IMG/VR virus record: IMGVR_UViG_3300022839_000006
Coordinates: 29,896 to 93,895 of that record
Source: a virus
Strand: one strand, 5' to 3'
DNA: 64,000 nucleotides
The notes under the pieces were generated by a model. That model did not search any database. It saw only the letters and a program-made list of their open reading frames with translations, and was not told the DNA's origin. Shown here one piece after another: positions 32,788 to 51,372 of the stretch. A program made the position numbers and the translations under genes. Numbering within the stretch: the stretch's first letter is position 1; every line of letters begins with the position of its first letter.

Positions 32788-33396
32788 ATGAACTACAAAT
32801 TTCCTGAAATTAAAACGCTATCTGATGTTCTCCCTCACGTTGAGGGGAGGTCAGAGTTTGTTGTGGCTGAACGTGTGTTTGGCACTGTAGTCAATTATAT
32901 GGTTGCAAAGAAAGACACGTTCGATATGAGTGGTCCTGATGATGTGGGTGGTGCGATTCGTCGTGAATGTCGTGGCATCAAATTTGACTTGGATGGAAAC
33001 ATCATAGCAAGACCCTTCCATAAGTTTTTCAACGTCGGCGAAAGAGAGGAGACACATCCTAACGTGCTGGACTTTTCCGTTGACCACACTGTCTATACAA
33101 AGGAAGACGGTAGCATGGCACATCCCATCATGTTCAACGGCACTGTACGGTGGTGCACCAAGATGGGACTGACAGACGTGTCTGCTTATATGGACACGTT
33201 CTGCGCGAAGAACCCCAAATACAATCAGTTTGCACGTGATTGCATTGCAGATGGCTACACGCCACTTTTTGAGTATGTGGGACCATTTAACAAAGTGGTA
33301 ATTGAGCACAAAGAAGAGAATATGGTGTTGCTTGCTGTACGAAATACCATTACAGGCGAATTTGTCAACATAAACAAGGAGAATGCTAAATGGTGA
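32788..33396 (+). CDS. RNA ligase 1 (Rnl1-type) N-terminal half, carrying adenylation motif I
   Basis: Motif I TKEDGSM (compare T4 RnlA KEDGSL); ORF stops well before motifs IV/V. Confidence 0.6.
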   Translation: MNYKFPEIKTLSDVLPHVEGRSEFVVAERVFGTVVNYMVAKKDTFDMSGPDDVGGAIRRECRGIKFDLDGNIIARPFHKFFNVGEREETHPNVLDFSVDHTVYTKEDGSMAHPIMFNGTVRWCTKMGLTDVSAYMDTFCAKNPKYNQFARDCIADGYTPLFEYVGPFNKVVIEHKEENMVLLAVRNTITGEFVNINKENAKW

Positions 33397-33699
33397 ATGT
33401 TGGAGCACAAGGTGAACTGCGGGGATTACACTCTATGGATATATTCGTCTCAAACATTCCTTGCACAACTTCCCGAGAGTGTGTACCAGCACCTACCAAT
33501 TCGCACATAAACCATAGAAGTTGATATACAGTGCGACGAGTCGTTAAAGAAAATCGTGTGAAGACTTATTTTGAACAAATTGCCAACAATCGTAAAAGAG
33601 CGTGTTCTTTGGTCTCGCAACTGTGGACAACACGTCCACAATCAGTTATCGTTACCCATCGGACAATAGGTTTATAGACAAATCCTACTCAACGTTCAA

Positions 33700-33742
33700 C
33701 ATCAGATATCAGTCGTCAACTCAACTCAACTGATATCTGATG
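33700..33742 (+). other. 13-bp perfect stem hairpin (CATCAGATATCAG...CTGATATCTGATG, 17-nt loop with TCAAC x3)
   Basis: Hand verified; lies in the 380-bp insert between the two Rnl1 halves. Confidence 0.7.
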
Positions 33743-33776
33743 TAAGTTAATAGAATTATACATTTAAGAGGGACTC

Positions 33777-34334
33777 ATGGACATCATAGAAAAAATCAAA
33801 ACGTACGACATTCCTGTTGTAGTGTCACATGGTAGGTATACTTCTGCAGAAGCATTGCTCGAATTTACTCGTCCTCTTGAGGGCATCGAGGGGTTTGTCG
33901 TTGACTTTGACGGCCACAAGGTGAAGGTCAAGGCTGATCAGTATGTCACGCTTCATAGGGTGAAGGACCAGATTCGAACCGAACGTCACATTCTTGAGAT
34001 CATCATTAATGGAAAACTCGACGATGTTCTCCCTATCCTAGACGCAACAGATCGAGTAACCGTTGAAGAATACCAACAGCGTTTTAACGTGGGGTTCGAC
34101 GCAGTTGTGAGTCGAATTGAAGGGCTAGTGTTGCTTGCGCGTGCCCTCCACAGTGGCGACAAGAAGGAAGTTGCCATAAAATTTGTGCCAAATCTCCTAC
34201 ACAAAGAAGATTCAAGTTTCATATTTCGTGTACTTGATGGTAAAGAATTGCGCCCACATATCATCGAGTACGTTCGCAAAAGCGTAGGTAATACTACACG
34301 CTACGACGCTCTTCTCAAATGGCTACAAATGTAG
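33777..34334 (+). CDS. RNA ligase 1 C-terminal half, carrying motifs IV/V
   Basis: EGFVVDFDGHKVKVK ~40 aa from its N-terminus lines up with T4 RnlA motifs IV-V if the two halves are joined; own RBS AAGAGGGACTCATG. Confidence 0.6.
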   Translation: MDIIEKIKTYDIPVVVSHGRYTSAEALLEFTRPLEGIEGFVVDFDGHKVKVKADQYVTLHRVKDQIRTERHILEIIINGKLDDVLPILDATDRVTVEEYQQRFNVGFDAVVSRIEGLVLLARALHSGDKKEVAIKFVPNLLHKEDSSFIFRVLDGKELRPHIIEYVRKSVGNTTRYDALLKWLQM

Positions 34335-34406
34335 TAGGTTGTACTGACTTGTTAAAGGAAGAGGACAACGTGCAATTACGCATGCTGATTACAAAAGGAC
34401 TAAAAC

Positions 34407-35351
34407 ATGACTTTCGTTAAATTTACATCTATTGACAAGTTCGCTGATGCGTGGAAAATGATGCAACGACAAGAAATTGGCCAGATCCAATACCGCTCCA
34501 AAATAAAGCTGCACGGTACAAACGCCGGAGTTCGCATTGAAGGTGGTCAGCCTTTTTATCAAAAGCGTACTACAGACGTTACACCACTTGCAGACAATGC
34601 AGGGTTCGCATCGTTCGCATGTACTGTAGACTGGAAGATTGACGAAGATATTATCATCTACGGCGAGTGGGCCGGAAAAGGCGTTCAAAAATCTGATGCT
34701 GTTTCTTCGATTCCTACAAAGATGTTGTTTGTTTTCGCAGTGAAAAAAGATGAATACATGATCACTGAACCAGCCGCAATTCGTGAGTATGTACCATACC
34801 ACCCACAGATTGTGATTCTACCATGGTTCGACGAACCAACAACACTAGACATCAACGACGTCAGCAGTGCAAAAGCACTTTCAGAACGTCTCAACGTAGA
34901 CGTGGAACAGATTGGATCAGAAGACCCATTCATCAAAGAGCGTTTTGGTATCTCAGGTGTTGGTGAAGGTCTTGTCGTCTCGCCATGTTCAGAAACTGGT
35001 TCGGTCCCACTTTGGCTTTACAACACATATACATTCAAGGTCAAATCTGATGCTCACCTTGTACAGAAAACTAAAGGAATCAACTCTTCAATCTACATTG
35101 AAATTCCTGGTTCTGTCAGAGAATTCTGTGATCAATTCGTCACGGACAACCGATGTGAACAGATGGTTCAAGAACACCTTGAAGGCTCCTATACTATGAG
35201 AGGAATGGGGACATTTCTTAAAACAATCAACGCTGATATTCTGAAAGAAAGCAGAAACGAATTTGCTGAACTTGGTGTAGAATGGAAGATGGTTGCAAAG
35301 GAAATCAATAAACGTACTGCGAAATGGTTCAAATCTAAAAATACAGTTTGA
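34407..35351 (+). CDS. RNA ligase 2 (Rnl2-type)
   Basis: Motif I KLHGTNAG (T4 Rnl2 KIHGTN), YGEWAGKGVQK motif-III region; 314 aa (T4 Rnl2 is 334 aa). Confidence 0.75.
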   Translation: MTFVKFTSIDKFADAWKMMQRQEIGQIQYRSKIKLHGTNAGVRIEGGQPFYQKRTTDVTPLADNAGFASFACTVDWKIDEDIIIYGEWAGKGVQKSDAVSSIPTKMLFVFAVKKDEYMITEPAAIREYVPYHPQIVILPWFDEPTTLDINDVSSAKALSERLNVDVEQIGSEDPFIKERFGISGVGEGLVVSPCSETGSVPLWLYNTYTFKVKSDAHLVQKTKGINSSIYIEIPGSVREFCDQFVTDNRCEQMVQEHLEGSYTMRGMGTFLKTINADILKESRNEFAELGVEWKMVAKEINKRTAKWFKSKNTV

Positions 35352-35381
35352 CAAATAACGACACAGTGTCAGGAGACAGCC

Positions 35382-35729
35382 GTGAACATTTTCAACTGGA
35401 TCAAATCACTCTTCCAAAACCCTGTAGTGGCTCAACCAATTGATGGGCATGTGGTCTTTGATGGAAGACGTATTGCATGTCTTCCATCAAAGACAGCAGC
35501 GGAAGAATTCATTCGAAATCAATTCCAAGAGGTCGATGTCAAAACGGCCCGTATAAATCTAACTGCCAGAGGCAAATGTCGATCCACTCAGGATGGAAGA
35601 TGGAAGGCGTTTAGAAGCAATCTGAAATTGTCAAACAGGAGACGTCAAGATGAAAAAAGAGTTCAAACCAGTAGTGGGTGGACGAGCCAGCATCTGCACA
35701 TGGGAAATAGAATTTTATTTCCTAGATAA
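35382..35729 (+). CDS. hypothetical protein (GTG start); 3' end overlaps the next ORF and the real gene may be shorter
   Basis: ORF track only. Confidence 0.3.
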   Translation: MNIFNWIKSLFQNPVVAQPIDGHVVFDGRRIACLPSKTAAEEFIRNQFQEVDVKTARINLTARGKCRSTQDGRWKAFRSNLKLSNRRRQDEKRVQTSSGWTSQHLHMGNRILFPR

Positions 35730-35907
35730 ACAGCAAGCGAGATCATTCATCAAACTTCTAATCAAAGACGAAATTGATTTTTCGTTTGAATATGAAAAAG
35801 TTCTTGATCAAGCTGACGAACGGCACTATGTTACAGTAACTGGCTGCTGGGCGGCAAACATGGTTCGGGTTGCTCAGATGGCAGAAGAAGTTGACTATGT
35901 TGGATAA
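35650..35907 (+). CDS. small hypothetical protein
   Basis: RBS CAGGAGACGTCAAGATG. Confidence 0.45.
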   Translation: MKKEFKPVVGGRASICTWEIEFYFLDKQQARSFIKLLIKDEIDFSFEYEKVLDQADERHYVTVTGCWAANMVRVAQMAEEVDYVG

Positions 35908-35925
35908 CCAAAAAGGAATATAAAC

Positions 35926-36093
35926 ATGAACAAGGATGCAAAACAGCTGGCCAGAGATATTTATCTACAGGCTCTTAGTAACGCGGCGGGCTTGGCCGAT
36001 CTTACCCAGGAGGTAAGAATACAAATGCTTCAAGAGGCTGCTCAAATATGTATTGATGCTGCTGATGTATTTTACGAAGCAATTGGTGAGTAA
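35926..36093 (+). CDS. small hypothetical protein (55 aa)
   Basis: RBS AAAAGGAATATAAACATG, hand verified. Confidence 0.35.
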   Translation: MNKDAKQLARDIYLQALSNAAGLADLTQEVRIQMLQEAAQICIDAADVFYEAIGE

Positions 36094-36246
36094 GAATCAT
36101 CAAAAAAATCTGGTGCAATTGGCCAATAAATTATGGCACATACAATCTGAAAGCATGGCACGAAATTGCCAGAGGTGTCGTGTTTCTTCCTCTGGTAATT
36201 ATAGCATTCGCCCTGCTCTACTTTTCAGTGTGTTTGATGACAGGCA

Positions 36247-36585
36247 GTGCTGAAGCTGAACGAATTAGAAAAGATGTGCAGTGACATGATCAAAACAACA
36301 AATGGACTAAAACGAAATCACGTAGTTGAAGATGTTAATAGTACATCTGGTTTCTGGCCTGCTAGAATCTGGCGAATATTGGACAGCGAGCATGTGATCA
36401 CAATTTGCACAGGCCTTCATGTAAAAAAGATGCACGTCTCTGAATTGAGAAAGTCAGAGTATACCGGTAGGTGGATGAGCAATCGCAGCATCCGCGAAAA
36501 GACACACTTTCTGGGGATGACTAGACTGAGAGGATTAATTAAAGGCGCTCGGCATTATAATCCCGAACTGATCCCAGAAGAATGA
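36247..36585 (+). CDS. hypothetical protein
   Basis: 112-aa ORF with GTG start. Confidence 0.4.
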   Translation: MLKLNELEKMCSDMIKTTNGLKRNHVVEDVNSTSGFWPARIWRILDSEHVITICTGLHVKKMHVSELRKSEYTGRWMSNRSIREKTHFLGMTRLRGLIKGARHYNPELIPEE

Positions 36586-36603
36586 AACTGGAGTAACAAT
36601 GAC

Positions 36604-36807
36604 ATGAACAGTAGAGTTTATGAAGATCAGGATGGTTTGGAAATTACCACTAAAGATCGATCAATAGAATTTCTGAAATTTGACGGAGGAAAAACGATTC
36701 TTGATGTGGTGATTCATGACAAGAAACTGCAAAATCCCGTAGTGGTGTGTCTAACATCAGATGAAGCAACCCAATTGAAAAACTGGCTGAATGATCAGGG
36801 ATTCTAA
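36604..36807 (+). CDS. small hypothetical protein
   Basis: 67-aa ORF. Confidence 0.45.
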   Translation: MNSRVYEDQDGLEITTKDRSIEFLKFDGGKTILDVVIHDKKLQNPVVVCLTSDEATQLKNWLNDQGF

Positions 36808-37094
36808 ATTTGATAGACAGTTGACACCGAAGTCATTCTGTTATATTTTTATATTATAGAGGAAACACACATGGGGCGACGTGGAATTAGTCAACTGTAC
36901 AGTCCCTTGTGATACTGTCCCAAAGTGGGCAACGTACAGGACCTCAAGACAGCAAAGAGCCAAGCATAGCGTGCAAAATACAAGAAATCAAGTCTAGAGA
37001 TCATGACTGCTCTTGTGGCGCATCGCAGCATAAGTCCCTTCCAGTCCCAACCAATCACTAAAATTTTAACACTCATGAAATAGGAGATGTACTA

Positions 37095-37286
37095 ATGTAC
37101 AATAGAAGTTTTGATCTAGGATTCGTCGCTGGAATAGTAGGTGCTGTTGTAGTGTGTATGGTTATTATTGTCGTCTTCACTACCCCGACTTCAGAGTGGC
37201 AGTCAAATGCCATCGAACGTGGTTATGCACTGTATTGTCCATCGACTGGTGACTTTGCGTGGAAAGATGAATGTGACGTAAAATGA
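37095..37286 (+). CDS. small membrane protein
   Basis: RBS AGGAGATGTACTAATG; single TM. Confidence 0.4.
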   Translation: MYNRSFDLGFVAGIVGAVVVCMVIIVVFTTPTSEWQSNAIERGYALYCPSTGDFAWKDECDVK

Positions 37287-37642
37287 CTTGGAAATTGTTC
37301 CTTGATGATATCAGGTTCCCTGCTGATGTCAGATATGATTATGGTCCCTACCGAGATATTGTAATCTGTCGTAGTATGGACGATGCAGTGTGGTGTGTTG
37401 AACAATATGGTCTCCCTCAATTCATCAGCTTTGACCATGATTTGGCAGACGTTCATTATGAACAGGGCGATGGAGAAAAAACAGGGTTTACATTTGCCAA
37501 GTGGCTATGTGACTATGTCATGGACAACAATCTTCAAATGCCCGAAGATTTTGGTTTTTTTGTACATTCCATGAATCCCGTCGGCGCAGAAAACATCCGT
37601 TGTTATATGAACAACTTTTTAAAGTACTGGCAACACAAATGA
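37283..37642 (+). CDS. hypothetical protein, possible cyclic-phosphate-processing receiver (CPR)-like domain
   Basis: LFLDDIR ... ICRS ... SFDHDLA pattern resembles the receiver-like CPR domain linked to RNA-repair loci; recalled from memory. Confidence 0.35.
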   Translation: MTWKLFLDDIRFPADVRYDYGPYRDIVICRSMDDAVWCVEQYGLPQFISFDHDLADVHYEQGDGEKTGFTFAKWLCDYVMDNNLQMPEDFGFFVHSMNPVGAENIRCYMNNFLKYWQHK

Positions 37643-37998
37643 TGAAAATGTATATTGCCTTATTGGATGAATTTCCTGATCATATGACACCCACTCTTGT
37701 GGCTCATTCGGTGTTGTCTGCACATGATAAATTCTCAGAGAGGCTTATGATTAACGGTCACTCTGGATATTATTATCCTGAATACATAGACTGGTTTGAG
37801 AATTCATTCAAGAAAGTCACATTACGAGTGAACCAAAAAGAGTTTGACAAGATTGCTGCATTGCCAAATGTTCATTTGGGACACGAGAACACCACACTGG
37901 AAGGCAGAAAGGCCTGTGCCGTAGTTTGTCCCATGCCAAATGAAAACTTGCCCAACGTATTGAAGTATGCTAAACTGTGGAAACCCAAGCACGAATAA
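37639..37998 (+). CDS. hypothetical protein, weak PTH2-like similarity
   Basis: MYIALLDEFPDHMTPTLVAHSVLSAH resembles the N-terminus of the clearer Pth2 homolog at 50944. Confidence 0.35.
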   Translation: MMKMYIALLDEFPDHMTPTLVAHSVLSAHDKFSERLMINGHSGYYYPEYIDWFENSFKKVTLRVNQKEFDKIAALPNVHLGHENTTLEGRKACAVVCPMPNENLPNVLKYAKLWKPKHE

Positions 37999-38168
37999 AG
38001 AACACTTGTTGAGCAATCTTCAATTCCAGAGTGACTGTTTAGAGAACCCTTTATTGGAAGTAGACTTTAGGCACACTCCATAGACAATCAATAATTACAA
38101 ACAAGAGTGTGACATGACACGAGAAAGTATCAAGCGAGTGATTAAATTAATCGAAAACGGAGTAAATA

Positions 38169-38387
38169 TTGATGGTAAATGATGTTGGAAGATTGAACCA
38201 AGAAATAAAGATTGCACTTGATCAATACATCAAGACTAACGATGTGTCGCACATGGACAAAGTGCTCGAATTAACAAAAGAACGTGCGAAGTCGTTGAAA
38301 GCTCGCGACTTTGAGACTTTCTATGCAGACAAGGTTGTGCGGTTAGATAAGGGAACAAACACAACCGAGAAAAAGAAGGGTCGATGA
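38169..38387 (+). CDS. small hypothetical protein
   Basis: 72-aa ORF. Confidence 0.4.
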   Translation: MMVNDVGRLNQEIKIALDQYIKTNDVSHMDKVLELTKERAKSLKARDFETFYADKVVRLDKGTNTTEKKKGR

Positions 38388-38454
38388 ATCTTACCATGAA
38401 TAATTTTTACGAAGGGAAGATAGAAGCTTACCGGAAAATGCAGGAGTCAATGAC

Positions 38455-38739
38455 GTGGTGAACATTTGGCGCGATTTAAAATCAGATCCACCCGCTGGCA
38501 ACGAATATGCGGTGATTATTTTCCCTTGTAAAAGCGATTGCGGTGTGCTTTACACAATTAGCAATCCCCATTATGCCCGAGGTGAAAACGCACTCGAAGC
38601 AGGATACACACATTGGTGCCTGTTTACATTGGCTAGTAACCACGACGAGTGGGAAAAATGGCAAGATGATCTGCTGCCCACTACAGGCGGAGATATCAAT
38701 TGCGCCATGGCGCAATTGAAAGACTTCGAGAAGACGTGA
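38455..38739 (+). CDS. small hypothetical protein
   Basis: 94-aa ORF. Confidence 0.4.
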   Translation: MVNIWRDLKSDPPAGNEYAVIIFPCKSDCGVLYTISNPHYARGENALEAGYTHWCLFTLASNHDEWEKWQDDLLPTTGGDINCAMAQLKDFEKT

Positions 38740-38875
38740 GTAGTATTCAAACAGATGATCAGAGAACTGATGGATGGGTTTGAGGATAAGATTCAAGCTT
38801 TGACAGATGCTAGATTTGATCACAAACGTGGCACTCGATTAATCTCTTTCCGAATGGATTCTGAATCCATTTCGT

Positions 38876-39097
38876 GTGCATAATTACTGGGACCACAACA
38901 CAGACAGAGAAGATGAAGCATGGGTTTCGTACACAGATCTTTTGGATCTTGATTCGGTCGATAGGATCAAAAAGGAAACACAGATAGCCAGAGAAACTGA
39001 AAACAATCGCTTGACACTTGAGAAGCTGAAAGCAATCGAGAAAACTGAAAGAGACGACTTGAAGAAACTAATCGACAAATATGGGGTGCCTGAATGA
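38876..39097 (+). CDS. small hypothetical protein
   Basis: 73-aa ORF. Confidence 0.4.
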   Translation: MHNYWDHNTDREDEAWVSYTDLLDLDSVDRIKKETQIARETENNRLTLEKLKAIEKTERDDLKKLIDKYGVPE

Positions 39098-39100
39098 GCT

Positions 39101-39286
39101 ATGACAGAGGCTGTCCTTGCGGCAGAGAATCGTGCTACGAGAACTGTACGTCAAGTGATTGTTACAGAAAACCACACCAAACATTGTAGCAAGCAAGTAA
39201 AGGTGCATACAACATCCGGCGAACACTTTTATGACGAAAGGGGTGCGCTGGACTCATCATGGCCACATGGCATCTTGAACTATTAA
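39101..39286 (+). CDS. small hypothetical protein (61 aa)
   Basis: ORF track; an overlapping 31-aa Cys-rich ORF from ATG 39092 has the better RBS. Confidence 0.3.
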   Translation: MTEAVLAAENRATRTVRQVIVTENHTKHCSKQVKVHTTSGEHFYDERGALDSSWPHGILNY

Positions 39287-39340
39287 TTGGACAATTTAAT
39301 AGGATCAAACTGACTCCATTGTAAATTATTAGGATTAAAC

Positions 39341-39775: not shown

Positions 39776-39824
39776 AATTCAAAGGACGGCAAATGCGATC
39801 ATCAGAACAGTTTAGGATTGAATA

Positions 39825-40244
39825 ATGAATAGATATGAATTTCAGGACGTAGTGGACTCTATTATGGGCAAGACAGAATACGTTCCTGGTGTTAGAGCAA
39901 ATTCCAAAGCTAGAATTAAAGGCAAAGACCCCTATTTCAGTCATTGCTCAAAGATAACTGCTACATGGGAAACTGGCGGAGTGAGTGGGGGTAGCTGTTG
40001 GGACGATTCCGATCCTGTTGAGTATTCAACCTCTGAACTTGAACCTGATTTTCACCACTTGGATGAGATACTTTCTAAAGTTGCAAGCAACGTCACATTT
40101 CTTGAATACAAAACTCTCATGAAATTAGTGAAGTACGGTACATATATAGAGAACGAGTATTACGGTAACTGTACATACTACGCGACAAAGACGATTACAA
40201 TTGATGACATCTGGGACTTTCTTGTTGCACAAAAACATGTCTGA
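39825..40244 (+). CDS. hypothetical protein
   Basis: 139-aa ORF, RBS TAGGATTGAATAATG. Confidence 0.5.
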   Translation: MNRYEFQDVVDSIMGKTEYVPGVRANSKARIKGKDPYFSHCSKITATWETGGVSGGSCWDDSDPVEYSTSELEPDFHHLDEILSKVASNVTFLEYKTLMKLVKYGTYIENEYYGNCTYYATKTITIDDIWDFLVAQKHV

Positions 40245-40638
40245 GATTATCTTGTTCATTGGTCTTCCTGGCTCTGGAAAAACACACGTGTCTGGTAGGA
40301 TGTGTTCTGAAATCTTTGATGATATCATTGACCTCGATTTGTTGCCACAACAAATCGAGGTTGACTCCATACTTGGTATATGTGATGTTAATTTCTGTGA
40401 TGATAAGATTCTCAGCAATGCTGTTGCGTTTTTCAAGGACAAATATCCCCATTCTCGTGTCAAAAAACATTATTTTGAGAATGCGCCAGACAAATGTAGA
40501 GCCAACGTTGTTCATCGGAATGACGGAAGAAACGTCGAAGGTACAATAAAGAGGTTTGAAAAAATCTACAACCCGCCTCAAGGCTTCCATGAGGTTTGGG
40601 GACATGTAAAAGGAAAAGAGGACAAAAAAGGTGATTAA
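40237..40638 (+). CDS. P-loop kinase (polynucleotide/nucleoside kinase-like, kinase domain only)
   Basis: Walker A ILFIGLPGSGKTH at the N-terminus as in the T4 Pnk kinase domain; no phosphatase domain. Confidence 0.5.
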   Translation: MSEIILFIGLPGSGKTHVSGRMCSEIFDDIIDLDLLPQQIEVDSILGICDVNFCDDKILSNAVAFFKDKYPHSRVKKHYFENAPDKCRANVVHRNDGRNVEGTIKRFEKIYNPPQGFHEVWGHVKGKEDKKGD

Positions 40639-41491: not shown

Positions 41492-42124
41492 ATGGAACAC
41501 CTGACATTTGTAGTTGCAGACATTCACGGACGCTTTGATCTTCTGGAATTGGCACTAAAAGAGATCGACTTACAGGGTGGGAAGAATATAATCTTTACAG
41601 GCGATTACATTGACCGTGGTCCTCAAAGCCGTGAAGTTGTTGAGCTATTGATTGCAGGCCCTCAAGATAATGATTGTACCTGGTCATTCATCAAGGGCAA
41701 CCACGAAGACATGATTCTCCACTGTATAGACGGAACAGACATCGAATGGTGGATTCAACACGGCGGTGACACAACAATCAAATCGTACGGCAGCAATATT
41801 CCTGCCAAACATCTTCAATGGTTTGATGAGATGCCTCGTTTGCTGTGGGATACACATCGAGTATACGTCCATGCAGGAGTGTCTGAATCACATTCACTTG
41901 ATAATCAGCCTGACCAAACAACACAGTGGCATCGTTACGGAAAGAATGAAGATATTGGCTACCACGATAAACACGTAGTTCATGGACACACAATTGGTAC
42001 AAAGTTTCTTGTAAACCGTACCAATTTAGATGCAGGATCTTTTCGCACGGGAAGATTGACTGTCGGCGTGTTTGATGACAACAAAGAGGGTGGGCCCATT
42101 CGCACGATTGGGATCTCTGTCTAA
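41492..42124 (+). CDS. PPP-family Ser/Thr protein phosphatase (lambda-phosphatase / ApaH-like)
   Basis: VADIHGR...GDYIDRG...GNHE...HAG...GH motif series. Confidence 0.75.
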   Translation: MEHLTFVVADIHGRFDLLELALKEIDLQGGKNIIFTGDYIDRGPQSREVVELLIAGPQDNDCTWSFIKGNHEDMILHCIDGTDIEWWIQHGGDTTIKSYGSNIPAKHLQWFDEMPRLLWDTHRVYVHAGVSESHSLDNQPDQTTQWHRYGKNEDIGYHDKHVVHGHTIGTKFLVNRTNLDAGSFRTGRLTVGVFDDNKEGGPIRTIGISV

Positions 42125-43431: not shown

Positions 43432-43465
43432 TTAGGTTAATAAATAAGCCTAAAAGGGGACGTTT

Positions 43466-44276: not shown

Positions 44277-44349
44277 TCAATTGTCCAAAATTAACAGCCT
44301 CATCGACGACCATGTAGGCCATCTGAACACGTGATCTAAATTTTATATT

Positions 44350-44568: not shown

Positions 44569-44624
44569 GAATGCTCTTACCTATAAATATCAGCAAATGA
44601 AATCTTTATGAAAAGAGGAAATGA

Positions 44625-44837
44625 ATGTCAACAAAAAAGATGCTGTTTCTAGAAAATCCGTATGATGTGGAGACGCTCCTAGAATGCATTAAGATTGCTA
44701 CAGAACATAATCGAGAATTAGTATACATGGACAGATTGGTAGGAATGTTAAGACTCGATCCTGAGGCCGATTTGATTAATCTAAACTACCGTATAATGCA
44801 CGACTTGTCACTGTTGAAACTCGAACCTGTCGAATAA
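44625..44837 (+). CDS. small hypothetical protein
   Basis: RBS AAGAGGAAATGAATG. Confidence 0.4.
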   Translation: MSTKKMLFLENPYDVETLLECIKIATEHNRELVYMDRLVGMLRLDPEADLINLNYRIMHDLSLLKLEPVE

Positions 44838-45116
44838 AGGAATACATCATGGGAAGAACTACACCTCAAAAGGTCAGCGCAACTGTACATCGACCTCTAC
44901 TCGTCGACAAACGTAGCTTAACAGTGAAAACGCGTGGTTGACCATCACAAAACAGATTCAAGTCGTCTGTTCATTATTGTCCGGACCAACAACTTGAATC
45001 GCGGCACATCGAAAGATCGCGCAAGTAAAACGTTTGTGGCAAAGTAAGAAAATATTAACCTAGAATGAGTAGAGCATTGACCTTTACTCATTCTTTCACA
45101 TCTGAAAGATACTACA

Positions 45117-45494
45117 ATGCTCGATCAATACAGTAACATCGTAAAATTTCCTAATGGCAAAACTGTAAAACCGTCCACACTTCAAACTGAAGATAATATA
45201 GTAGATCAGATCTTCGAATTAGAATCTCCTTTGGCTAAGGAGATTTCAGACACACTCTTGAATTACATCTTTGGTGAAATGCAGCGGACAGGTGCAGATA
45301 TTGATATTGACGATGTGTATCCATCATTGACTCTTGTAATGGGGGCGTTGCAGTCTTTCCAACTGAAATTAATGAACATTCACCATTCACATCAAGACTA
45401 TGCTGATAAAATTTACCGCGGTTCTGACGTTGACCTCCATCTGATTACAGCAGATGCTCAATCATTCTATAAAAATGATAACGGAGATGAATAA
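45117..45494 (+). CDS. hypothetical protein
   Basis: 125-aa ORF abutting rnh. Confidence 0.45.
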   Translation: MLDQYSNIVKFPNGKTVKPSTLQTEDNIVDQIFELESPLAKEISDTLLNYIFGEMQRTGADIDIDDVYPSLTLVMGALQSFQLKLMNIHHSHQDYADKIYRGSDVDLHLITADAQSFYKNDNGDE

Positions 45495-46355
45495 GTGCCA
45501 ATACTAATGGACTACAGCCAGGTCATAATCGCGTCGCTATTTGCCAGCATCGGCAATCACACGAACGTAGAGATATCTGAAGATCTGATTCGACACATGT
45601 TCCTTGTGTCGCTACGCCACAACAGAATGAAGTTTGCTCAAACATATGGCGAGTTGGTAATCTGTTGCGATGGCAAGAATTCATGGCGTCGCGAGTTGTT
45701 TCCATACTACAAGGCGTCGCGTAGATCTGATCGCGAGAAATCTGAACTAAACTGGAGTGAACTGTTTGGAATCATAAACAACATCAGAGAAGAATTGTCT
45801 GACCACTTCCCATACAAGGTCATTAACGTCGATCAATGCGAAGCAGACGACATCATCGGCGTTGTCTGTCACGAAAACGGCACACAGTTAAACAACGGCA
45901 GTGAAAAGTATCTGATCCTTTCAGGAGACAAAGACTATATTCAGTTGCAAAAATATGCCAACATCGATCAGTACGACCCTACACGAAAAAAATTCATTCG
46001 TCACGACAATCCTGATCAATACCTCGTCGAGCACATTCTCAAGGGTGACAGAGGCGATGGCGTTCCAAATGCATTGTCTCCAGACAATTGTCTGGCAATT
46101 GGCCAACGTCAAAAATCAATGACTGCTATAAAGCTTAGTCTGTTTTCAAAATCGCGTGACAACATGGACGAGGAGACACGAGGACGCTTTGATCGGAACA
46201 AGCAGTTGATCGATCTTGGCGAAACGCCTGAGAATTTTCGTCAAGAGATCATTACCGCGTATAACAAAGAAAAAAACATTGGACGCTCTAAACTCTTCAA
46301 CTACTTCATTCAGAAGCAACTCAAACACCTCATGACAGATATACAGGACTATTAA
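45495..46355 (+). CDS. rnh: RNase H / FEN-1-type 5'-3' exonuclease (T4 rnh-like)
   Basis: CEADDIIG, LILSGDKDYIQL and GDRGDGVPN motifs of the 5' nuclease family. Confidence 0.8.
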   Translation: MPILMDYSQVIIASLFASIGNHTNVEISEDLIRHMFLVSLRHNRMKFAQTYGELVICCDGKNSWRRELFPYYKASRRSDREKSELNWSELFGIINNIREELSDHFPYKVINVDQCEADDIIGVVCHENGTQLNNGSEKYLILSGDKDYIQLQKYANIDQYDPTRKKFIRHDNPDQYLVEHILKGDRGDGVPNALSPDNCLAIGQRQKSMTAIKLSLFSKSRDNMDEETRGRFDRNKQLIDLGETPENFRQEIITAYNKEKNIGRSKLFNYFIQKQLKHLMTDIQDY

Positions 46356-46356
46356 C

Positions 46357-46794
46357 ATGCTACTATCACTATCAGAAATTGTAAACAAAACAATTAAACT
46401 CCCTACCAAACAGGAAAAAATTGACTGGCTTCAATCAAATAAAAGCGTTCCACTGTTGACTGTGCTCAACATCATGTATAATAAAGACGTACGGATGTTG
46501 ATTCCTGATTCTGCCCCACCGTGGAAGAAGAATGGTTATATTGGTGTAGAAGGGATGCTATACAAAGAGACACGCCGCCTTAAAATCTTCATTGAAGGTG
46601 GCGGATACGACAACCTTCAACAGACGAAGAGGGAACAATTGTTCATTTCCCTACTTGAAGATGTGGATGACAATGACGCAGACCTTCTGTGTCAAATGAT
46701 TGCACAGAAGTCACTAAAGGGTATGTCACGTACTGTTGTAGCTGAAGCGTTCCCTGAATTAAACTTGAAATCTGAAGTTAAAGAGGATCTATAA
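46357..46794 (+). CDS. hypothetical protein
   Basis: 145-aa ORF. Confidence 0.5.
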   Translation: MLLSLSEIVNKTIKLPTKQEKIDWLQSNKSVPLLTVLNIMYNKDVRMLIPDSAPPWKKNGYIGVEGMLYKETRRLKIFIEGGGYDNLQQTKREQLFISLLEDVDDNDADLLCQMIAQKSLKGMSRTVVAEAFPELNLKSEVKEDL

Positions 46795-46795
46795 G

Positions 46796-46957
46796 ATGGC
46801 AAAATCATTCCGCAAATTCCGTGAAGATTCGTACGGCGATTGGGACGATCAAGACAACGACATCCGCGAAAAGCACAAAAAAATGGAATCGAGACGTGAT
46901 CAACGACGGAAGAAGCTGAGCGAACAGCAGTCAGTAAACGACACAGATGAACAGTGA
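46796..46957 (+). CDS. small basic/acidic hypothetical protein (53 aa)
   Basis: Starts immediately after the upstream stop. Confidence 0.3.
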   Translation: MAKSFRKFREDSYGDWDDQDNDIREKHKKMESRRDQRRKKLSEQQSVNDTDEQ

Positions 46958-47540
46958 ACGAACCATCCTTGTGGATGTTGACGGTGTTCTCTTGAACTGG
47001 ATCGTGTCTTTCGAACGATGGATGCGATCTAGAAACTACAAAAAGAAAAACCGATCAATGTATAGGATCGAAGATGTGTATGGTATTACGTCCTCCGACG
47101 CACACAAAGAGATTGTCAGTTTCCACAACAGTAAATATATTGGATTGCTCCCTTCTTTCAGAGATGCAAGAAAATACGTAAGAAAACTTCACGTGGAGCA
47201 TGGATACGTCTTTCACTGTGTAACTGCTATTCCTGATTCAGATCACATTAAAAAAATGCGACATCAAAACATTGATGGAATATTCGGTTCGAATGCAATC
47301 AAGAAAATTGACTGTGTCACAAAGAGTACTAACAAGGAGGCGATACTTGCACAGTATGCAGGATCGGGCGCTCCATGGGTCGAAGATTTGTACTCTAATG
47401 TCCTCACAGGCCAGAAAGTTGGTCTCACACCTTATATAATGGATCATTGGTACAACCGCCAAGCTGAAGAAGAAAAAGGTGTTGTTCGTGTAAAAAACTG
47501 GGCCAATCTTTACGAACTTATTGTATCTACACATAAATAG
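46947..47540 (+). CDS. HAD-superfamily phosphatase (5'-nucleotidase-like)
   Basis: ILVDVDGVL motif I. Confidence 0.55.
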   Translation: MNSERTILVDVDGVLLNWIVSFERWMRSRNYKKKNRSMYRIEDVYGITSSDAHKEIVSFHNSKYIGLLPSFRDARKYVRKLHVEHGYVFHCVTAIPDSDHIKKMRHQNIDGIFGSNAIKKIDCVTKSTNKEAILAQYAGSGAPWVEDLYSNVLTGQKVGLTPYIMDHWYNRQAEEEKGVVRVKNWANLYELIVSTHK

Positions 47541-47574
47541 ATTTGTAAAGATCTGTTGTAATGAGACACAATTG

Positions 47575-47610
47575 AGCGGTTCTTTTACAGAACCGCTTTT
47601 CGCTTTTTTG
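47575..47610 (+). terminator. rho-independent terminator
   Basis: AGCGGTTC-TTTTACA-GAACCGCT stem-loop followed by TTTCGCTTTTTTGG. Confidence 0.7.
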
Positions 47611-47618
47611 GAGGGCAA

Positions 47619-47855
47619 ATGCCAATATATAGTATCATGAACAAAGAAACTGACGATGTTTTTGAAGTAAACATCAAGTTTGCAGAACTGGACAAATATT
47701 TGTCCGACAATCCCACATACAAACAAGTATTCACAAAATTCCCAAGCTTCGGCGATCCTGTACGTTTGGGCCTTAGAAAGCCTGACGATGGCTTTCGCGA
47801 TGTATTGAGAACTGTCCAACATCACCATAAAAAGGATTCAATCAACACATTCTAA
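47619..47855 (+). CDS. small hypothetical protein
   Basis: 78-aa ORF, RBS GGAGGGCAAATG. Confidence 0.45.
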   Translation: MPIYSIMNKETDDVFEVNIKFAELDKYLSDNPTYKQVFTKFPSFGDPVRLGLRKPDDGFRDVLRTVQHHHKKDSINTF

Positions 47856-47894
47856 CCACGTCCTTCCGTTTCTTTAACAAAAATAGGAGTTCAC

Positions 47895-48623
47895 ATGTCC
47901 ATTAGACGTATGACCAAAACAAGAAAAAAGCAACACACTAGAGAAGCTAACCAAATACTGAATGTGAAATTTGGCATGAAGCAAATTGCACCTATCACAG
48001 ACAACCAAGACTTGTTGTTTGAAGCGTACGAAGAAGGAAAAAACATCCTTGCAATTGGCTCAGCAGGAACAGGAAAAACGTTCACAGCTCTCTATTTGGC
48101 ACTTAAAGACGTTATGGCAAACAATGACTACAAAGAGATTATCATCGTCAGATCATCGGTCCAATCGCGGGAGCAGGGTCACCTGCCAGGCGACGCAAAG
48201 GAAAAGATGGCATATTTCGAGTCACCATACGCTGACATTGTTAATGAGTTGTTTGGACGTGGTGACGCTTATGAAATTATGAAACAAAAGAACACTATTA
48301 GGTTTATGAGCACGTCGTTTATTCGCGGACTTACGTTTGACGATGCGCTGATTATTGTCGACGAATGTCAGTCATGCACGTACCACGAGCTCGATAGTAT
48401 CATAACGCGTGTGGGCGAAGGATCTCGCATCATTTTCTGCGGTGATGTGAAGCAAGACGACCTGAAAACAGGTGGTAGAGGACGAAATGACGTATCAGGT
48501 CTGAAAGACTTTGTGAAGGTTCTCAACAACATGTCCTCTGTTCAAACCATTGAATTCACCATAAACGATGTGGTTAGATCAGGACTCGTCAAGGAGTACT
48601 TGATAGCTAAAGAAGCAGCCTAA
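47895..48623 (+). CDS. phoH: PhoH-like ATPase
   Basis: Walker A AIGSAGTGKTF, DEAH-like IIVDECQS, typical PhoH length and motifs. Confidence 0.85.
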   Translation: MSIRRMTKTRKKQHTREANQILNVKFGMKQIAPITDNQDLLFEAYEEGKNILAIGSAGTGKTFTALYLALKDVMANNDYKEIIIVRSSVQSREQGHLPGDAKEKMAYFESPYADIVNELFGRGDAYEIMKQKNTIRFMSTSFIRGLTFDDALIIVDECQSCTYHELDSIITRVGEGSRIIFCGDVKQDDLKTGGRGRNDVSGLKDFVKVLNNMSSVQTIEFTINDVVRSGLVKEYLIAKEAA

Positions 48624-48687
48624 GCAACCAAGGGGCATGTTTTTCTCTGATTGACATGCCCCTTGTCTCGCATCTACTTCAATTGGG

Positions 48688-48695
48688 TATAAATA
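48688..48695 (+). promoter_or_regulatory. T4-type late promoter box TATAAATA upstream of the PAAR gene
   Basis: Exact TATAAATA ~30 nt before the ATG. Confidence 0.5.
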
Positions 48696-48726
48696 GTTGT
48701 GTAGACTATAAGAGTGGAACATCATA

Positions 48727-49032
48727 ATGTCAGCAGTAGCAAGAGTCAGTGTGGATAATGTGAACACAGGACACGGATGTGATAGTATCGCGGGGATAGA
48801 AGGTCAACTACAAACCAAGGTTTTTATAAACGGTTCTCCTGCCGCTGTTATGGGCGACGCAATTGCTTCTCACACAATACTATCAGGTGGAAGCTGTGTG
48901 CCACACAGCGCTGTCATAAATCAAGGATCGTCAAAGGTTTTCTGTCAAGGGATCGCAATCGCAAGAGTGAACGATTCAGCTGATGCAGGTGCCGTCGCAA
49001 CAGGGTCACCTACCTGCTCTGCTGGAGGATAA
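48727..49032 (+). CDS. PAAR-repeat spike-tip protein (T4 gp5.4-like)
   Basis: GSPAAVMGD and IAIARVND PAAR motifs; ~100 aa. Confidence 0.7.
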   Translation: MSAVARVSVDNVNTGHGCDSIAGIEGQLQTKVFINGSPAAVMGDAIASHTILSGGSCVPHSAVINQGSSKVFCQGIAIARVNDSADAGAVATGSPTCSAGG

Positions 49033-49034
49033 CA

Positions 49035-49514
49035 ATGAAATCGTTAAAAGAATACATGACAACGCGTAAATACGTTTGTGTCAATTACACAAAGGAATCG
49101 CAGAACCGACTCCGGGAATGGGCTCAAAACAATGGGTTTGACCTAAGCATAGGTTTCAACGGTGCAGACCAAGATCCAACAGACTTTAACTTTCACACAA
49201 CAATATTCTATTCCACGAACGACGTTTATCTTAGAAACCAAGAAATGAGCGAGAGTGAGACAGAAGTATTTGTTACAGGCTTTGACATGTTTGGCGACAA
49301 CAAAGATATACCTGTGCTCATTCTTTCGTATTCAGGCGGACTAAAAGACATCCGTGAACATTTCGAAAGACTTGGACTAGAAGATAAGTATCCAAGATAC
49401 CGACCACACATCTCCCTGTCGTATGTAAGGGAACGAAAAGACGTCTCTAAAATGGAGCTACCAGACTTCAGGCCAAAATTTGATAAAATTGCAATACGTG
49501 AGATAAAGGACTAA
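49035..49514 (+). CDS. 2H phosphoesterase (LigT/CPDase-like)
   Basis: Two H-x-T/S-x motifs (HTTIFYS and HISLSY) at the spacing expected for the 2H fold. Confidence 0.55.
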   Translation: MKSLKEYMTTRKYVCVNYTKESQNRLREWAQNNGFDLSIGFNGADQDPTDFNFHTTIFYSTNDVYLRNQEMSESETEVFVTGFDMFGDNKDIPVLILSYSGGLKDIREHFERLGLEDKYPRYRPHISLSYVRERKDVSKMELPDFRPKFDKIAIREIKD

Positions 49515-49517
49515 CTC

Positions 49518-50174
49518 GTGTTTAATCATGAAACTAATTTTGATCTTCCTGAACTAAGTGCTGAATTGACCGAGAAGGGGCGCTTCTACACCACACCTAA
49601 CGGCGACGTGTATCCGTCTGTCACTACAGTTATAGGACACGGCACAGATAAGTCATTTATTCAGAGGTGGAGAGATCGAGTCGGTGACGTTGAGGCTGAT
49701 AAAGTGTTGGCACAAGCTAATCGTAGAGGGACTGCTGTACACGAGATATGTGAGCAGTATCTAAAAAACGATCCGCTATACAAAAAAGGTCACATGCCTG
49801 TGAACATTGCAAACTTTCTTGATATGAAGCCCCACTTAGACAAACACATTACAACAGTTGGCGGCTTAGAGATTCCCCTTTATTCAGACAAGTTTCGTGT
49901 AGCAGGTAGAGTTGATTGTCTTGCGAAGTGGGACAATGAGTGGGCAATTGTAGACTTCAAAACAAGCAGAAGAGTTAAGAAGCACGAAGAAATTCACGGT
50001 TACTTTATGCAAGCGAGTTGCTATGCATACATGGTTTATGAGCGGACCAACGTCGTGCCGAAGAACATTGTAATTGTCATGTCCGTGGACGATTCTGATT
50101 CTTTGGTGTTCATCGAGAAGGCGAGAGACTGGTTGCCAAAATTTGTTGTCGTTCGCAACTCTGTTGACCTTTAA
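49518..50174 (+). CDS. PD-(D/E)xK-superfamily nuclease (Cas4/RecB-like)
   Basis: GRVDCLAKWDNEWAIVDFKTS D...D/E-x-K arrangement; GTG start. Confidence 0.5.
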   Translation: MFNHETNFDLPELSAELTEKGRFYTTPNGDVYPSVTTVIGHGTDKSFIQRWRDRVGDVEADKVLAQANRRGTAVHEICEQYLKNDPLYKKGHMPVNIANFLDMKPHLDKHITTVGGLEIPLYSDKFRVAGRVDCLAKWDNEWAIVDFKTSRRVKKHEEIHGYFMQASCYAYMVYERTNVVPKNIVIVMSVDDSDSLVFIEKARDWLPKFVVVRNSVDL

Positions 50175-50274
50175 CTGAAATCTCTCTACGTTGATCCTAT
50201 GAATTGGTGAGTATACGTAACCGCCTTTTCAGCCTTCTGCACACGATTGTTACCATTGTATTTGAAGGAAAACT

Positions 50275-50586
50275 ATGAAAAATAAACTAACAATCATCGT
50301 AGAACAGAACCTAGGAATCTTTCTTGGTAATCATGCAGGCATTGCAATTTTCAGTTACAGCGACGCGACGCTTGCCACAAAAGCATATGGATTCAGAAGC
50401 AAAGATGATGCTAAGAAGTACGTTCGGAATTATCTTAAACACATGAAAAACAATGTTGAATATGTTGTTGTTCCGTGTCCACATCGCGAACATTATGTGA
50501 CAGTAGTCGATCTAATTAAGGCAGGACATGCGGACCTTGCTGCAGATCTGTTTCTGAACATGTCCGCACATCCTACATTGCAATAA
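50275..50586 (+). CDS. hypothetical protein
   Basis: 103-aa ORF, RBS AAGGAAAACTATG. Confidence 0.45.
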   Translation: MKNKLTIIVEQNLGIFLGNHAGIAIFSYSDATLATKAYGFRSKDDAKKYVRNYLKHMKNNVEYVVVPCPHREHYVTVVDLIKAGHADLAADLFLNMSAHPTLQ

Positions 50587-50734
50587 AAGGAGAACACCAA
50601 TCGCACATGTATTTGTTGCTGCGTTATACGCAGCAGGTCTCTATCTTTCTACACACGGTTTTGTAGGTGGTACTTATCTACTGTTTGGACTGCTTAGCAT
50701 ACACGTTATCGTTCTCGTACTTGCAAGTTCTGTA

Positions 50735-50947
50735 ATGTTGGGAATTTCTCATAGAAAGGCAGAAGGGAAAGCTAAAATACTACCAGGAAATGTGCTGTTA
50801 GGTCAAGTGTTTGTTGGAATTGCAGGTTATCACATGTTTATGATGGGTCACCTGTTGATTGCAGGAGTAATATCCACTACGCTCACAATTGCAGTTGTTG
50901 GGGATCTTGTACGCATGTTGACAACAAAGGACAAACCAACACAATGA
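50735..50947 (+). CDS. membrane protein; the hydrophobic frame is open ~45 codons upstream with no ATG/GTG/TTG
   Basis: First ATG at 50735; upstream in-frame sequence is TM-like. Confidence 0.3.
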   Translation: MLGISHRKAEGKAKILPGNVLLGQVFVGIAGYHMFMMGHLLIAGVISTTLTIAVVGDLVRMLTTKDKPTQ

Positions 50948-51372
50948 CTGTCCCTGTACTCTACATCATAATGAGAACAGATCTCGACTCGATGAATTCA
51001 GGCAAGGCAATGGCCCAAGCGTCCCACGCATCTAATGCGTTTGTAAAGGCTTGCAACAAAGCAATAGAGACAAACACAAACTCTCAACCACTAAGTGACG
51101 CTTTTGAAAAATGGCAGAACGAAACGGCTCAGGGATTTGGTACTGTCCTCGTGTTAGAAGGACAGACGATGAGTAGCATTGAGGATTCAATCGAACTGCT
51201 CTATGGTTACGGACACGTTGCAGGTGTTGTTCACGATCCTACCTATCCAATACTCGATGGATATGCAGTCCACCACATCCCACTCTACACATGTGGATAC
51301 GTTTTTATCGAAGACAAAAGCCTACACACAGCCGCCTCTGACATTCTAAAACACTACAATCTACACAAATAA
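50944..51372 (+). CDS. PTH2-family peptidyl-tRNA hydrolase-like protein
   Basis: LYIIMRTDLDSMNSGKAMAQASHAS matches the PTH2 N-terminal signature. Confidence 0.6.
   Translation: MTVPVLYIIMRTDLDSMNSGKAMAQASHASNAFVKACNKAIETNTNSQPLSDAFEKWQNETAQGFGTVLVLEGQTMSSIEDSIELLYGYGHVAGVVHDPTYPILDGYAVHHIPLYTCGYVFIEDKSLHTAASDILKHYNLHK

Follow-up and report, generated by a model that had tools for sequence, protein, structure and literature searches.

Do the RNA-related genes scattered along a phage genome make up a system for mending broken RNA, and how would the work be divided among their products? We address this question for a 64,000-nucleotide stretch of viral DNA (positions 29,896 to 93,895 of IMG/VR record IMGVR_UViG_3300022839_000006; hereafter, the window), in which an original prediction made from the letters alone had recognized RNA ligases, end-healing enzymes, and tRNA-related proteins. 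Our analysis supports the presence of a real set of RNA/tRNA end-healing and sealing genes distributed through the window. The best explanation, to which we assign a probability of roughly 65% on the strength of homology and predicted structure, is a distributed set for reversing RNA and tRNA damage that would use the chemistry of bacterial Pnkp in unbundled form and in which RNA ligase 1 (Rnl1) is encoded by a gene in pieces. The predicted open reading frames (ORFs) indeed exist on the plus strand, at or within a few codons of where they had been placed, and nearly all their identities hold; the interpretation placed on them is supported in part.

The sealing enzymes are encoded by neighboring genes, and both the split Rnl1 and the RNA ligase 2 (Rnl2) that had been proposed were borne out (matches are given with their E-values throughout). 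The N-terminal piece of Rnl1 matches Pfam RNA_lig_T4_1 (1.8e-22), phrog_562 (1.5e-41), and the T4 Rnl1 structure 2c5u over T4 residues 52-193 (1.7e-16). The C-terminal piece matches 2c5u over T4 residues 217-319 (8e-7), phrog_562 over positions 208-364 (4.2e-21), and Pfam T4_Rnl1_C (0.0093). Motifs I (KxDG) and III reside in the N-half and motifs IV (EG) and V (KxK) in the C-half, all of them aligning to the motifs of T4. Twelve residues, which we take to be the essential ones of T4 Rnl1, are likewise shared out: equivalents of R54, K75, F77, K99, D101, G102, K119, and E159 are found in the N-half and those of E227, G228, K240, and K242 in the C-half. Unlike T4 RnlA, the enzyme is not a single polypeptide, for a stop codon and 380 nt, with no sign of an intron, lie between its two ORFs. 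The adjoining Rnl2 matches phrog_548 over positions 1-304 (8e-38), is 50% identical to an annotated roseophage Rnl2, and aligns its motif I with the KIHGTN of T4 RnlB (2e-6). Its score against Pfam RNA_ligase (25.4 bits) falls slightly under the 27-bit cut-off, and its ratio of nonsynonymous to synonymous substitution rates (dN/dS) is 0.08.

For 5'-end healing, the candidate is a small P-loop protein that had been proposed to resemble the kinase domain of Pnk without its partner domain, and a family profile confirms this. Searched singly, the protein matches AAA_33 in the P-loop only (6e-5) and returns nothing except P-loop noise from the PDB; a single sequence being insufficient, a profile was built from 47 homologs. 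The three motifs given in Table 1 are invariant in all of them, the pattern of a polynucleotide 5'-kinase. Against the PDB, the profile matches RazKIN over its full length (9d8a, 2.1e-9; 9drz, 5.5e-9), with further matches to T4 Pnk (4.6e-5) and to the kinase domain of Clostridium thermocellum Pnkp (CthPnkp; 0.01). The Mucorales stand-alone RNA 5'-OH kinases, to which RazKIN belongs, are proven tRNA-splicing RNA kinases (PMC11571804). The phage protein, whose homologs measure 110-160 amino acids, is kinase-only, with no fused C-terminal HAD (DxDxT) 3'-phosphatase domain. In one other lineage, an RNA ligase gene lies ~1 kb and a weak Metallophos_2 gene ~2.9 kb away from the kinase homolog.

The kinase gene is followed, 0.85 kb downstream, by that of a metallophosphoesterase, which matches Pfam Metallophos (3.5e-13) and the NinI-like phrog_246 (3e-48). 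Its best PDB matches are 4j6o (1.7e-9) and then lambda phosphatase (lambda-Pase; 1g5b, 2.6e-7), and its motifs (DIHG, GDYIDRG, GNHED, and VHGH) are those of the lambda-Pase/CthPnkp branch. The structure 4J6O is the phosphatase domain of CthPnkp; this domain and lambda phosphatase are both Mn-dependent 2',3'-cyclic phosphodiesterases/phosphomonoesterases, and CthPnkp heals 3' ends in an RNA repair system of bacteria (PMC3675462). The phage protein is thus a candidate 2',3'-cyclic phosphodiesterase/phosphatase. It also matches the middle of phrog_8238, a 737-position profile named 'RNA ligase', whose later positions match both halves of Rnl1, a hint that other phages have the phosphatase and the ligase fused in one protein. 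End healing had been predicted to be partitioned differently from T4, and the gene content agrees, with a kinase devoid of a fused HAD domain and a separate phosphoesterase of the lambda-Pase/CthPnkp type close by. As judged from these alignments, the healing chemistry resembles that of bacterial Pnkp (kinase, metallophosphatase, and ligase) laid out as separate polypeptides and not the kinase-HAD fusion of T4.

Table 1. Coordinates and diagnostic properties of the repair-related features and of proteins once grouped with them (window numbering; aa, amino acids; SD, Shine-Dalgarno sequence)
Feature	Coordinates	Strand	Properties
Third metallophosphoesterase	5454-6137		Metallophos_2 7e-9; far upstream of the RNA ligase genes
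Metallophosphoesterase	25065..25739	+	Likely start Met34 at ~25164; DHH, GD, GNHD, GHIH; phrog_547 'phosphoesterase' 2e-46
Pol-beta-superfamily nucleotidyltransferase	25723..26874	+	N-terminal ~230 aa with CCA-adding-enzyme-like predicted fold; followed by a C-terminal part of ~150 aa
Rnl1, N-terminal piece	32788..33396	+	202 aa; R, K-F, motif I TKEDG, K119-equivalent, motif III FEYV
Rnl1-splitting spacer	33397..33776	+	380 nt; 15-bp perfect hairpin at 33699-33743; SD for the C-half
Rnl1, C-terminal piece	33777..34334	+	185 aa; own AAGAGGGA SD and ATG; motif IV EGFV, motif V KVKVKAD, C-terminal helical domain
Rnl2	34407..35351	+	314 aa; motif I KLHGTN
cREC, stand-alone cyclic-phosphate-processing receiver-like domain	37283..37642	+	119 aa; PF20274 7.1e-21; phrog_1479 7e-28
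Divergent PTH2-fold protein (predicted)	37639..37998	+	119 aa; start codon shared in part with the cREC stop codon (ATGA)
Stand-alone mini polynucleotide 5'-kinase-like P-loop protein	40237..40638	+	133 aa; GLPGSGKT, DD, R-x5-R-x3-R lid
Lambda-phosphatase/CthPnkp-phosphatase-type metallophosphoesterase	41493..42124	+	ORF from 41435, likely ATG at 41493
2H phosphoesterase, Acb1 (anti-CBASS) family	49035..49514	+	HTT and HIS motifs; PF23474 Acb1 4.9e-13
PD-(D/E)xK protein	49518		2.1e-8; generic nuclease
PTH2-type peptidyl-tRNA hydrolase	50944..51372	+	142 aa; GK..AQ..HA motif; PF01981 4.6e-8

Two further proteins are linked to Rnl1 by the company that they keep. The cREC protein, rightly recognized from the start, aligns to all of PF20274 (model positions 1-88 of 88) with 75.1 bits (27-bit cut-off), and in 10 of the 80 related viral loci a cREC gene lies no more than 6 kb from Rnl1. 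For homologs of the metallophosphoesterase at 25065, the same holds in 23 of the 80. Gene neighborhood supports a link of both with the ligase.

A pair of PTH2-like peptidyl-tRNA hydrolases had also been predicted, one clear and one weak, and hidden Markov models (HMMs) uphold the clear one. This protein, encoded at 50944, scores 33.7 bits against PF01981 (23-bit cut-off), with only model positions 3-67 aligned. G20, K21, A24, Q25, H28, and A29 are invariant, and PF01981 is present in most of its homologs, for which the Joint Genome Institute (JGI) uses the name peptidyl-tRNA hydrolase. The weak one, encoded directly after cREC, fails by HMM, scoring 14.2 bits (0.051) against Pfam PTH2, under the 23-bit cut-off. 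It matches phrog_5822 (4e-49), covering only the C-terminal half of that profile (positions 139-256 of 257), and some of its relatives may carry an extra N-terminal domain. Its family counts 1183 metagenomic homologs of ~120 amino acids, with 62-96% identity among the best 120, a Pfam match in none of the 120 listed, and a dN/dS of 0.066. An AlphaFold (AF2) model of this protein (predicted local distance difference test, pLDDT, 93.6) has the PTH2 fold: the top 14 Foldseek matches in the PDB comprise 13 PTH2/Bit1-family chains and Atu0240 (2gax), with probability 1.0 and TMq 0.56-0.75. The second protein is linked to PTH2 by predicted fold only.

The same applies to the putative Pol-beta nucleotidyltransferase at 25723, for which HMM searches found no Pfam match at E<=0.1 and PDB searches no sequence match, even with the family profile, so that membership of PolyA_pol is not supported at the sequence level. 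Across the 1347 representatives of its family, GG...DxD...FDFTVC is invariant (G20, G21, D34, D36, and D103). These residues and the AF2 model of the N-terminal 236 residues (pLDDT 90.5) agree with a Pol-beta head with GG...DxD and a third carboxylate plus a neck of the class II fold: every one of the top 31 Foldseek matches in the PDB is a class II CCA-adding enzyme, a related tRNA nucleotidyltransferase, or a poly(A) polymerase (best E 1.4e-6). The EDxxR nucleotide template of motif D is not evident in the family consensus. We file the protein, on the basis of its modeled structure, as a CCA-adding-enzyme-like nucleotidyltransferase.

Put together, these assignments outline a possible division of labor. 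The stand-alone kinase would phosphorylate 5'-OH ends, and the metallophosphoesterase 0.85 kb downstream would open and remove 2',3'-cyclic phosphates, with cREC and the Rnl1-linked phosphoesterase at 25065 perhaps contributing to healing of the 3' end. Sealing would then fall to Rnl2 or to a two-chain Rnl1. The CCA-adding-enzyme-like nucleotidyltransferase could rebuild tRNA 3' ends, while the two PTH2-fold proteins could free peptides from broken or stalled peptidyl-tRNA.

The foremost alternative is that there is no dedicated toolkit at all and that the window holds a mosaic of independently acquired accessory genes, several of which act elsewhere. According to this account, the 2H protein would break down CBASS signals and the lambda-Pase-like enzyme would remove phosphate from proteins; control of nucleotide pools would fall to the HAD proteins and a MazG-like enzyme, DNA would be the target of the PD-(D/E)xK and RuvC-like proteins, and Rnl1 would function in attaching tail fibers. 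We regard this as unlikely for the set as a whole, even though it describes some of the supposed members well. The 2H phosphoesterase is a case in point. Its two 2H motifs are present as predicted; the proposed LigT-type end-healing role did not stand, as the protein passes the Acb1 cut-off (49.5 bits against 27) and fails that of 2_5_RNA_ligase2 (18.7 bits against 27; 0.0019), and its sole PDB relatives are Acb1 structures (7t26, 0.0038). It is more likely a degrader of cyclic-oligonucleotide signals than an RNA end healer. Similarly, the two HAD proteins (at 29692 and 46947) and the PD-(D/E)xK protein do exist, as do the metallophosphatases, but the HADs and the nuclease have more plausible roles outside RNA repair: the HADs are NT5C-like and match phrog_2643, resembling 5'(3')-deoxyribonucleotidases, and the nuclease is a generic one. 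A role of the HAD protein at 46947 as RNA 3'-phosphatase is not supported, and it has no PDB match. PHROGs, moreover, names the family of the phosphoesterase at 41493 as NinI-like Ser/Thr phosphatases and phrog_562 as a tail-fiber attachment catalyst.

The gene arrangement speaks for the mosaic as well. The RNA-related genes do not form one operon-like cassette; they lie in a mosaic same-strand region together with DNA-metabolism and anti-defense genes. Interspersed among them are genes for a RecD-like helicase, an ATP-dependent DNA ligase, an SPFH protein, a T4-type RNase H/FEN, PhoH, a RuvC-like protein, Tad3, a PAAR protein, a GapR-like protein, and a MazG-like pyrophosphatase (dATP/dGTP pyrophosphohydrolase), and synteny with the contig L083, the closest relative, is weak. 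What such a mosaic leaves unexplained is that the closest solved relatives of the kinase and of the phosphoesterase are RNA-healing enzymes, that the two RNA ligases adjoin each other, that cREC and the 25065-type phosphoesterase recur near Rnl1 in many unrelated contigs, and that a PTH2 and a CCA-adding-like nucleotidyltransferase have no obvious role outside tRNA biology.

In favoring a distributed repair set, we should be frank about the observations that weigh against it. Its genes are spread over ~26 kb, dispersed among unrelated ones, in an arrangement that is not conserved. In two other lineages, no ligase gene lies closer than 4 kb to the kinase homolog, and cREC and the PTH2-like protein are no fixed pair, since they lie 2.5 kb apart in L083. 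The profile of the divergent PTH2-fold family has no significant match in the PDB (E 1.7 against PTH2 structures), and its hhalign comparison with the family of the true PTH2 at 50944 gave no signal (probability 0.2%). Enzymes of the lambda-Pase type are also annotated as protein phosphatases (NinI-like). Likewise, the name of phrog_562 includes tail-fiber attachment, a process in which T4 Rnl1 also acts, so that retention of Rnl1 need not reflect RNA repair. Finally, the assembly of the two Rnl1 halves is a prediction, and so are the activities of the whole set, which are deduced from homology and predicted structure.

The more unusual detail of the gene set is the split Rnl1, of which no report was found in the literature searched. 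About 75 of the 80 viral contigs that contain a relative of the N-half encode an intact, single-frame Rnl1 of ~375 amino acids. When concatenated, the window halves align in one piece to such intact genes, colinear and with nothing missing. The break falls between motifs III and IV, in a loop of variable length that follows the conserved TGxY segment (T4 residues ~193-200). A split intein is ruled out, as the halves are colinear with intact homologs and have no extra sequence.

Two related contigs, L003 and L083, indicate how the spacer may have arisen. Their insert between the Rnl1 halves occupies the same place and has at least ~2.4 kb of sequenced DNA and several forward ORFs; it is incomplete, since there is no overlap between the contigs. 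The window spacer holds the start of a 121-amino-acid ORF that is intact in L003, as well as a piece that corresponds to the terminal part of an L083 DUF6745 gene, and its last ~190 nt match the L083 DNA upstream of the Rnl1 C-half. Even the final seven codons and the stop of the N-half come from the ribosome-binding region of the inserted ORF. Because the halves are thus several genes apart in L003 and L083, the window would be a deletion derivative, and its 380-nt spacer is, by these matches, a decayed remnant of a larger multi-gene insert. We picture a mobile insertion that would have entered Rnl1 at a variable surface loop, after motif III and before motif IV, and has since decayed. The spacer is 77% identical to L083, as against ~93% for the adjacent C-half coding DNA. 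Since its hairpin is only 63% conserved in L083, we make no regulatory claim for it. As for its contents, the insert (L003 6673-7038 and L083 1-1540) comprises the 121-amino-acid ORF, which has no Pfam match, the DUF6745 gene, and small ORFs, one of them paralogous to the window ORF 35382-35729.

Splitting in this loop has apparently occurred more than once. In L004 and L005, Rnl1 is interrupted in the same loop by 809 nt that contain a reverse-strand gene for a GIY-YIG endonuclease (homing-endonuclease-like; L005 6584-7249, minus strand, 221 amino acids), and both halves are preserved, with a frame shift between them in L005. In a neighbor-joining tree of N-halves, these contigs nest among intact-gene lineages and are not sister to the pair formed by the window and L003, which is why the two splits appear to be independent. 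The C-half starts with AAGAGGGA-N3-ATG exactly at the homology boundary, and this Shine-Dalgarno sequence and start codon are conserved in the window, L083, and L005. Translated separately, the halves must, by prediction, reassemble non-covalently into one active site. Another ligase of unusual or split architecture may be present in L087, a different jumbo-phage contig, where a 209-amino-acid RNA_ligase ORF (Rnl2-type) is directly followed by a 243-amino-acid ORF without Pfam match (5358-6723), ~1 kb from a mini-kinase homolog.

Could the interrupted Rnl1 be a mere pseudogene, inactivated by the insertion and leaving Rnl2 as the sole ligase activity? The reading frame is indeed broken by a stop codon and a non-coding stretch of 380 nt, and the great majority of related loci keep the gene whole. 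Nevertheless, dN/dS amounts to 0.10 for the N-half (against L003, dS 0.47) and 0.18 for the C-half (against L083, dS 0.21), as compared with 0.08 for Rnl2 and 0.145 for cREC, and both halves appear from these ratios to evolve under purifying selection. The catalytic motifs are intact in both, the translation start of the C-half is conserved, both have survived although the insert is largely deleted or rearranged, and an independent clade retains both around its GIY-YIG gene. We consequently rate inactivation as highly improbable. Least credible of all is that the spacer is a self-splicing group I intron from whose removal a full-length Rnl1 would result, for although group I introns often interrupt phage genes, the insertion sits in a conserved enzyme gene, and splicing ...AAU to GAC... 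would be in frame, no Rfam family (group I introns included) matches the Rnl1 gap even at E<=10 with permissive filters apart from spurious miRNA hairpins, the insert of close relatives is a multi-gene one of at least ~2.4 kb at the same place, L005 has its reverse-strand GIY-YIG gene and frame shift, the C-half has its own start signals exactly at the homology boundary, and the N-half stop positions differ among relatives.

Where, then, do these genes reside? Nearly all plausible genes in the first ~53.5 kb of the window are on the plus strand, with large ORFs beyond on the minus strand; the one of these tested encodes a T4-type tail sheath, 44% identical to that of the Sinorhizobium phages phiM12 and phiN3. 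A 263,791-bp JGI contig encodes a protein that is 100% identical to the window kinase-like protein, which points to a T4-like phage of jumbo size as the source. The window covers part of the region of same-strand accessory and replication genes in this ~264-kb myovirus. Comparing the 18.6-kb region with 50,697 phage records by megablast gave no match, and thus no near-identical sequenced phage there. The closest phage relatives of Rnl1 and Rnl2 are largely phages of Caulobacter, Sinorhizobium, and roseobacters, apart from the top Rnl1 matches, which are two Synechococcus phages. A GapR-like DNA-binding protein is encoded at 51375-51671 (2.4e-30), and GapR is typical of alphaproteobacteria and their phages. 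Because of this gene and the affinities of the two ligases and of the tail sheath, the host is probably an alphaproteobacterium.

Several neighbors point to other ways of countering host defenses. A 159-amino-acid protein (30976-31455) is a Tad3, an inhibitor of type I Thoeris (Pfam Tad3, 1.3e-36), whose homologs adjoin mini-kinase homologs in two other contigs (L085 and L086). Further upstream, a fusion of an NMNAT (cytidylyltransferase-like) with a Nudix domain (11790-12809) and an NAMPT/NAPRTase (13211-14710) look like a phage salvage module for nicotinamide adenine dinucleotide (NAD+). For the Acb1-like 2H protein, Tad3, and the NAD-salvage genes, the most likely targets are host signaling and NAD depletion, which would place them in other counter-defense pathways and not at RNA ends. 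Downstream of the salvage genes lies the sole tRNA gene of the window, a tRNA-Phe(GAA) at 15608-15683, which is also the only Rfam match at gathering score over the window. A PAAR-motif protein (48727-49032, 8.5e-9) sits amid non-structural genes.

Promoter and terminator scans stayed close to the expectation from shuffled sequence, the sole convincing terminator being that at 47574-47598. It is the only strong intrinsic-terminator-like site of the 20-kb region (a GC-containing stem of 10 bp with a T-run behind it), lies directly after the HAD gene 46947-47540, and may mark a transcription-unit boundary inside the proposed toolkit. Perfect inverted repeats of 14-18 bp are found inside and between ORFs (32 pairs in 64 kb), for example at 32661-32704, 35454-35494, 40331-40361, 3433-3479, and 23945-23976. 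Of the ORFs that bear such repeats, some, for example 32593-32778 and 35382-35729, are possibly not genuine genes.

Jumbo phages with numerous RNA-repair genes are well known; the interest of the window lies in the details. If its halves reassemble, Rnl1 would represent, in a form split by nature, an enzyme family that is widely used in the laboratory; it would be one more of the few phage "genes in pieces" known so far, and the permissive loop could guide the engineering of split RNA ligases. The 133-residue kinase would rank among the smallest polynucleotide kinases, and together with separate metallophosphatase and ligase genes it would imply that the bacterial Pnkp chemistry has been unbundled in phages too. 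Two large families without Pfam models (the PTH2-fold one of 37639 and the CCA-adding-like one of 25723) gain a structural assignment that annotation pipelines had missed. A joint reading would have all these elements hold at once: a two-subunit Rnl1 with motifs I-III on one chain and, on its partner, the tRNA-binding domain along with motifs IV-V, a fission-tolerant loop in which insertions land recurrently, a fully unbundled Pnkp-like heal-and-seal pathway with a mini-kinase and a lambda-Pase-type phosphoesterase, and its extension to several kinds of tRNA damage by cREC and by the divergent PTH2-fold (~1200 members) and CCA-adding-like (~1300 representatives) families. We put this combination forward tentatively, as a proposal that falls somewhat short of even odds.

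How does the window compare with known systems? Jumbo phages have been described to encode RNA ligases, Pnk, HAD and calcineurin-like phosphatases, 2H proteins, and RlaP and CCA-adding nucleotidyltransferases, besides a cREC that is associated with RNA ligases and a PTH2 that would dispose of peptidyl-tRNA, all according to the same proposed logic (Iyer et al. 2021, PMC7824862). The window contains the same component classes, the link between cREC and ligase included (Iyer et al. 2021, PMC7824862; Burroughs & Aravind 2016). The 'unusually rich' toolkit of the original prediction is therefore rich relative to T4 and ordinary for its class, as this repertoire is typical of group 2/3 jumbo phages (PMC7824862). 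The window differs in that its Rnl1 is in two pieces, that its kinase is a stand-alone protein of 133 amino acids and not a Pnk-HAD fusion, that its nucleotidyltransferase and second PTH2-fold protein belong to families without a Pfam model, and that it has one tRNA gene. What is new is the variant architecture (a two-piece Rnl1 and unbundled Pnkp-like healing) and the assignment of two unmodeled families by fold, not the existence of a toolkit.

With the T4 system, in which Pnkp and Rnl1 (plus Rnl2) repair tRNA against PrrC, the window shares Rnl1 and Rnl2 with all ligase motifs and a kinase with the Pnk-type P-loop, catalytic Asp, and Arg lid. On the other hand, its kinase has no fused HAD 3'-phosphatase, a metallophosphoesterase being the candidate 3' healer, its Rnl1 is split, and it has extra cREC, PTH2, and CCA-like genes. 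CthPnkp-Hen1 combines kinase, metallophosphatase, and ligase in one polypeptide, and the window appears to hold the same three chemistries, with 4J6O as the best solved relative of its phosphoesterase; here, however, the modules are separate genes and the ligases are of the Rnl1/Rnl2 type instead of the Pnkp ligase. The window ORFs scanned include no Hen1 methyltransferase. RazKIN and MciKIN (PMC11571804) offer the closest parallel for the kinase, being stand-alone enzymes with a separate ligase and the best full-length solved relatives, and their essential Asp aligns with the DD motif. The phage protein is ~40 residues shorter, of viral origin, and outside any tRNA-splicing context.

Finally, functional split genes are known from several phages, namely nrdA/mobE of Aeh1, 39/60 of T4 with mobA, and gene 43 of phage 25 with seg, and gene 43 of 44RR is split with a non-coding spacer (IC-UTS) (PMC2988022). 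The window follows the same pattern, a conserved enzyme gene having been split by an insertion into two conserved ORFs. Like the IC-UTS of 44RR, its gap is only a non-coding remnant, whereas the L004/L005 clade still has the GIY-YIG gene in place. Unlike these known genes in pieces, the target is RNA ligase 1, a covalent nucleotidyltransferase, and the break leaves its motifs I-III on one side and motifs IV-V on the other.

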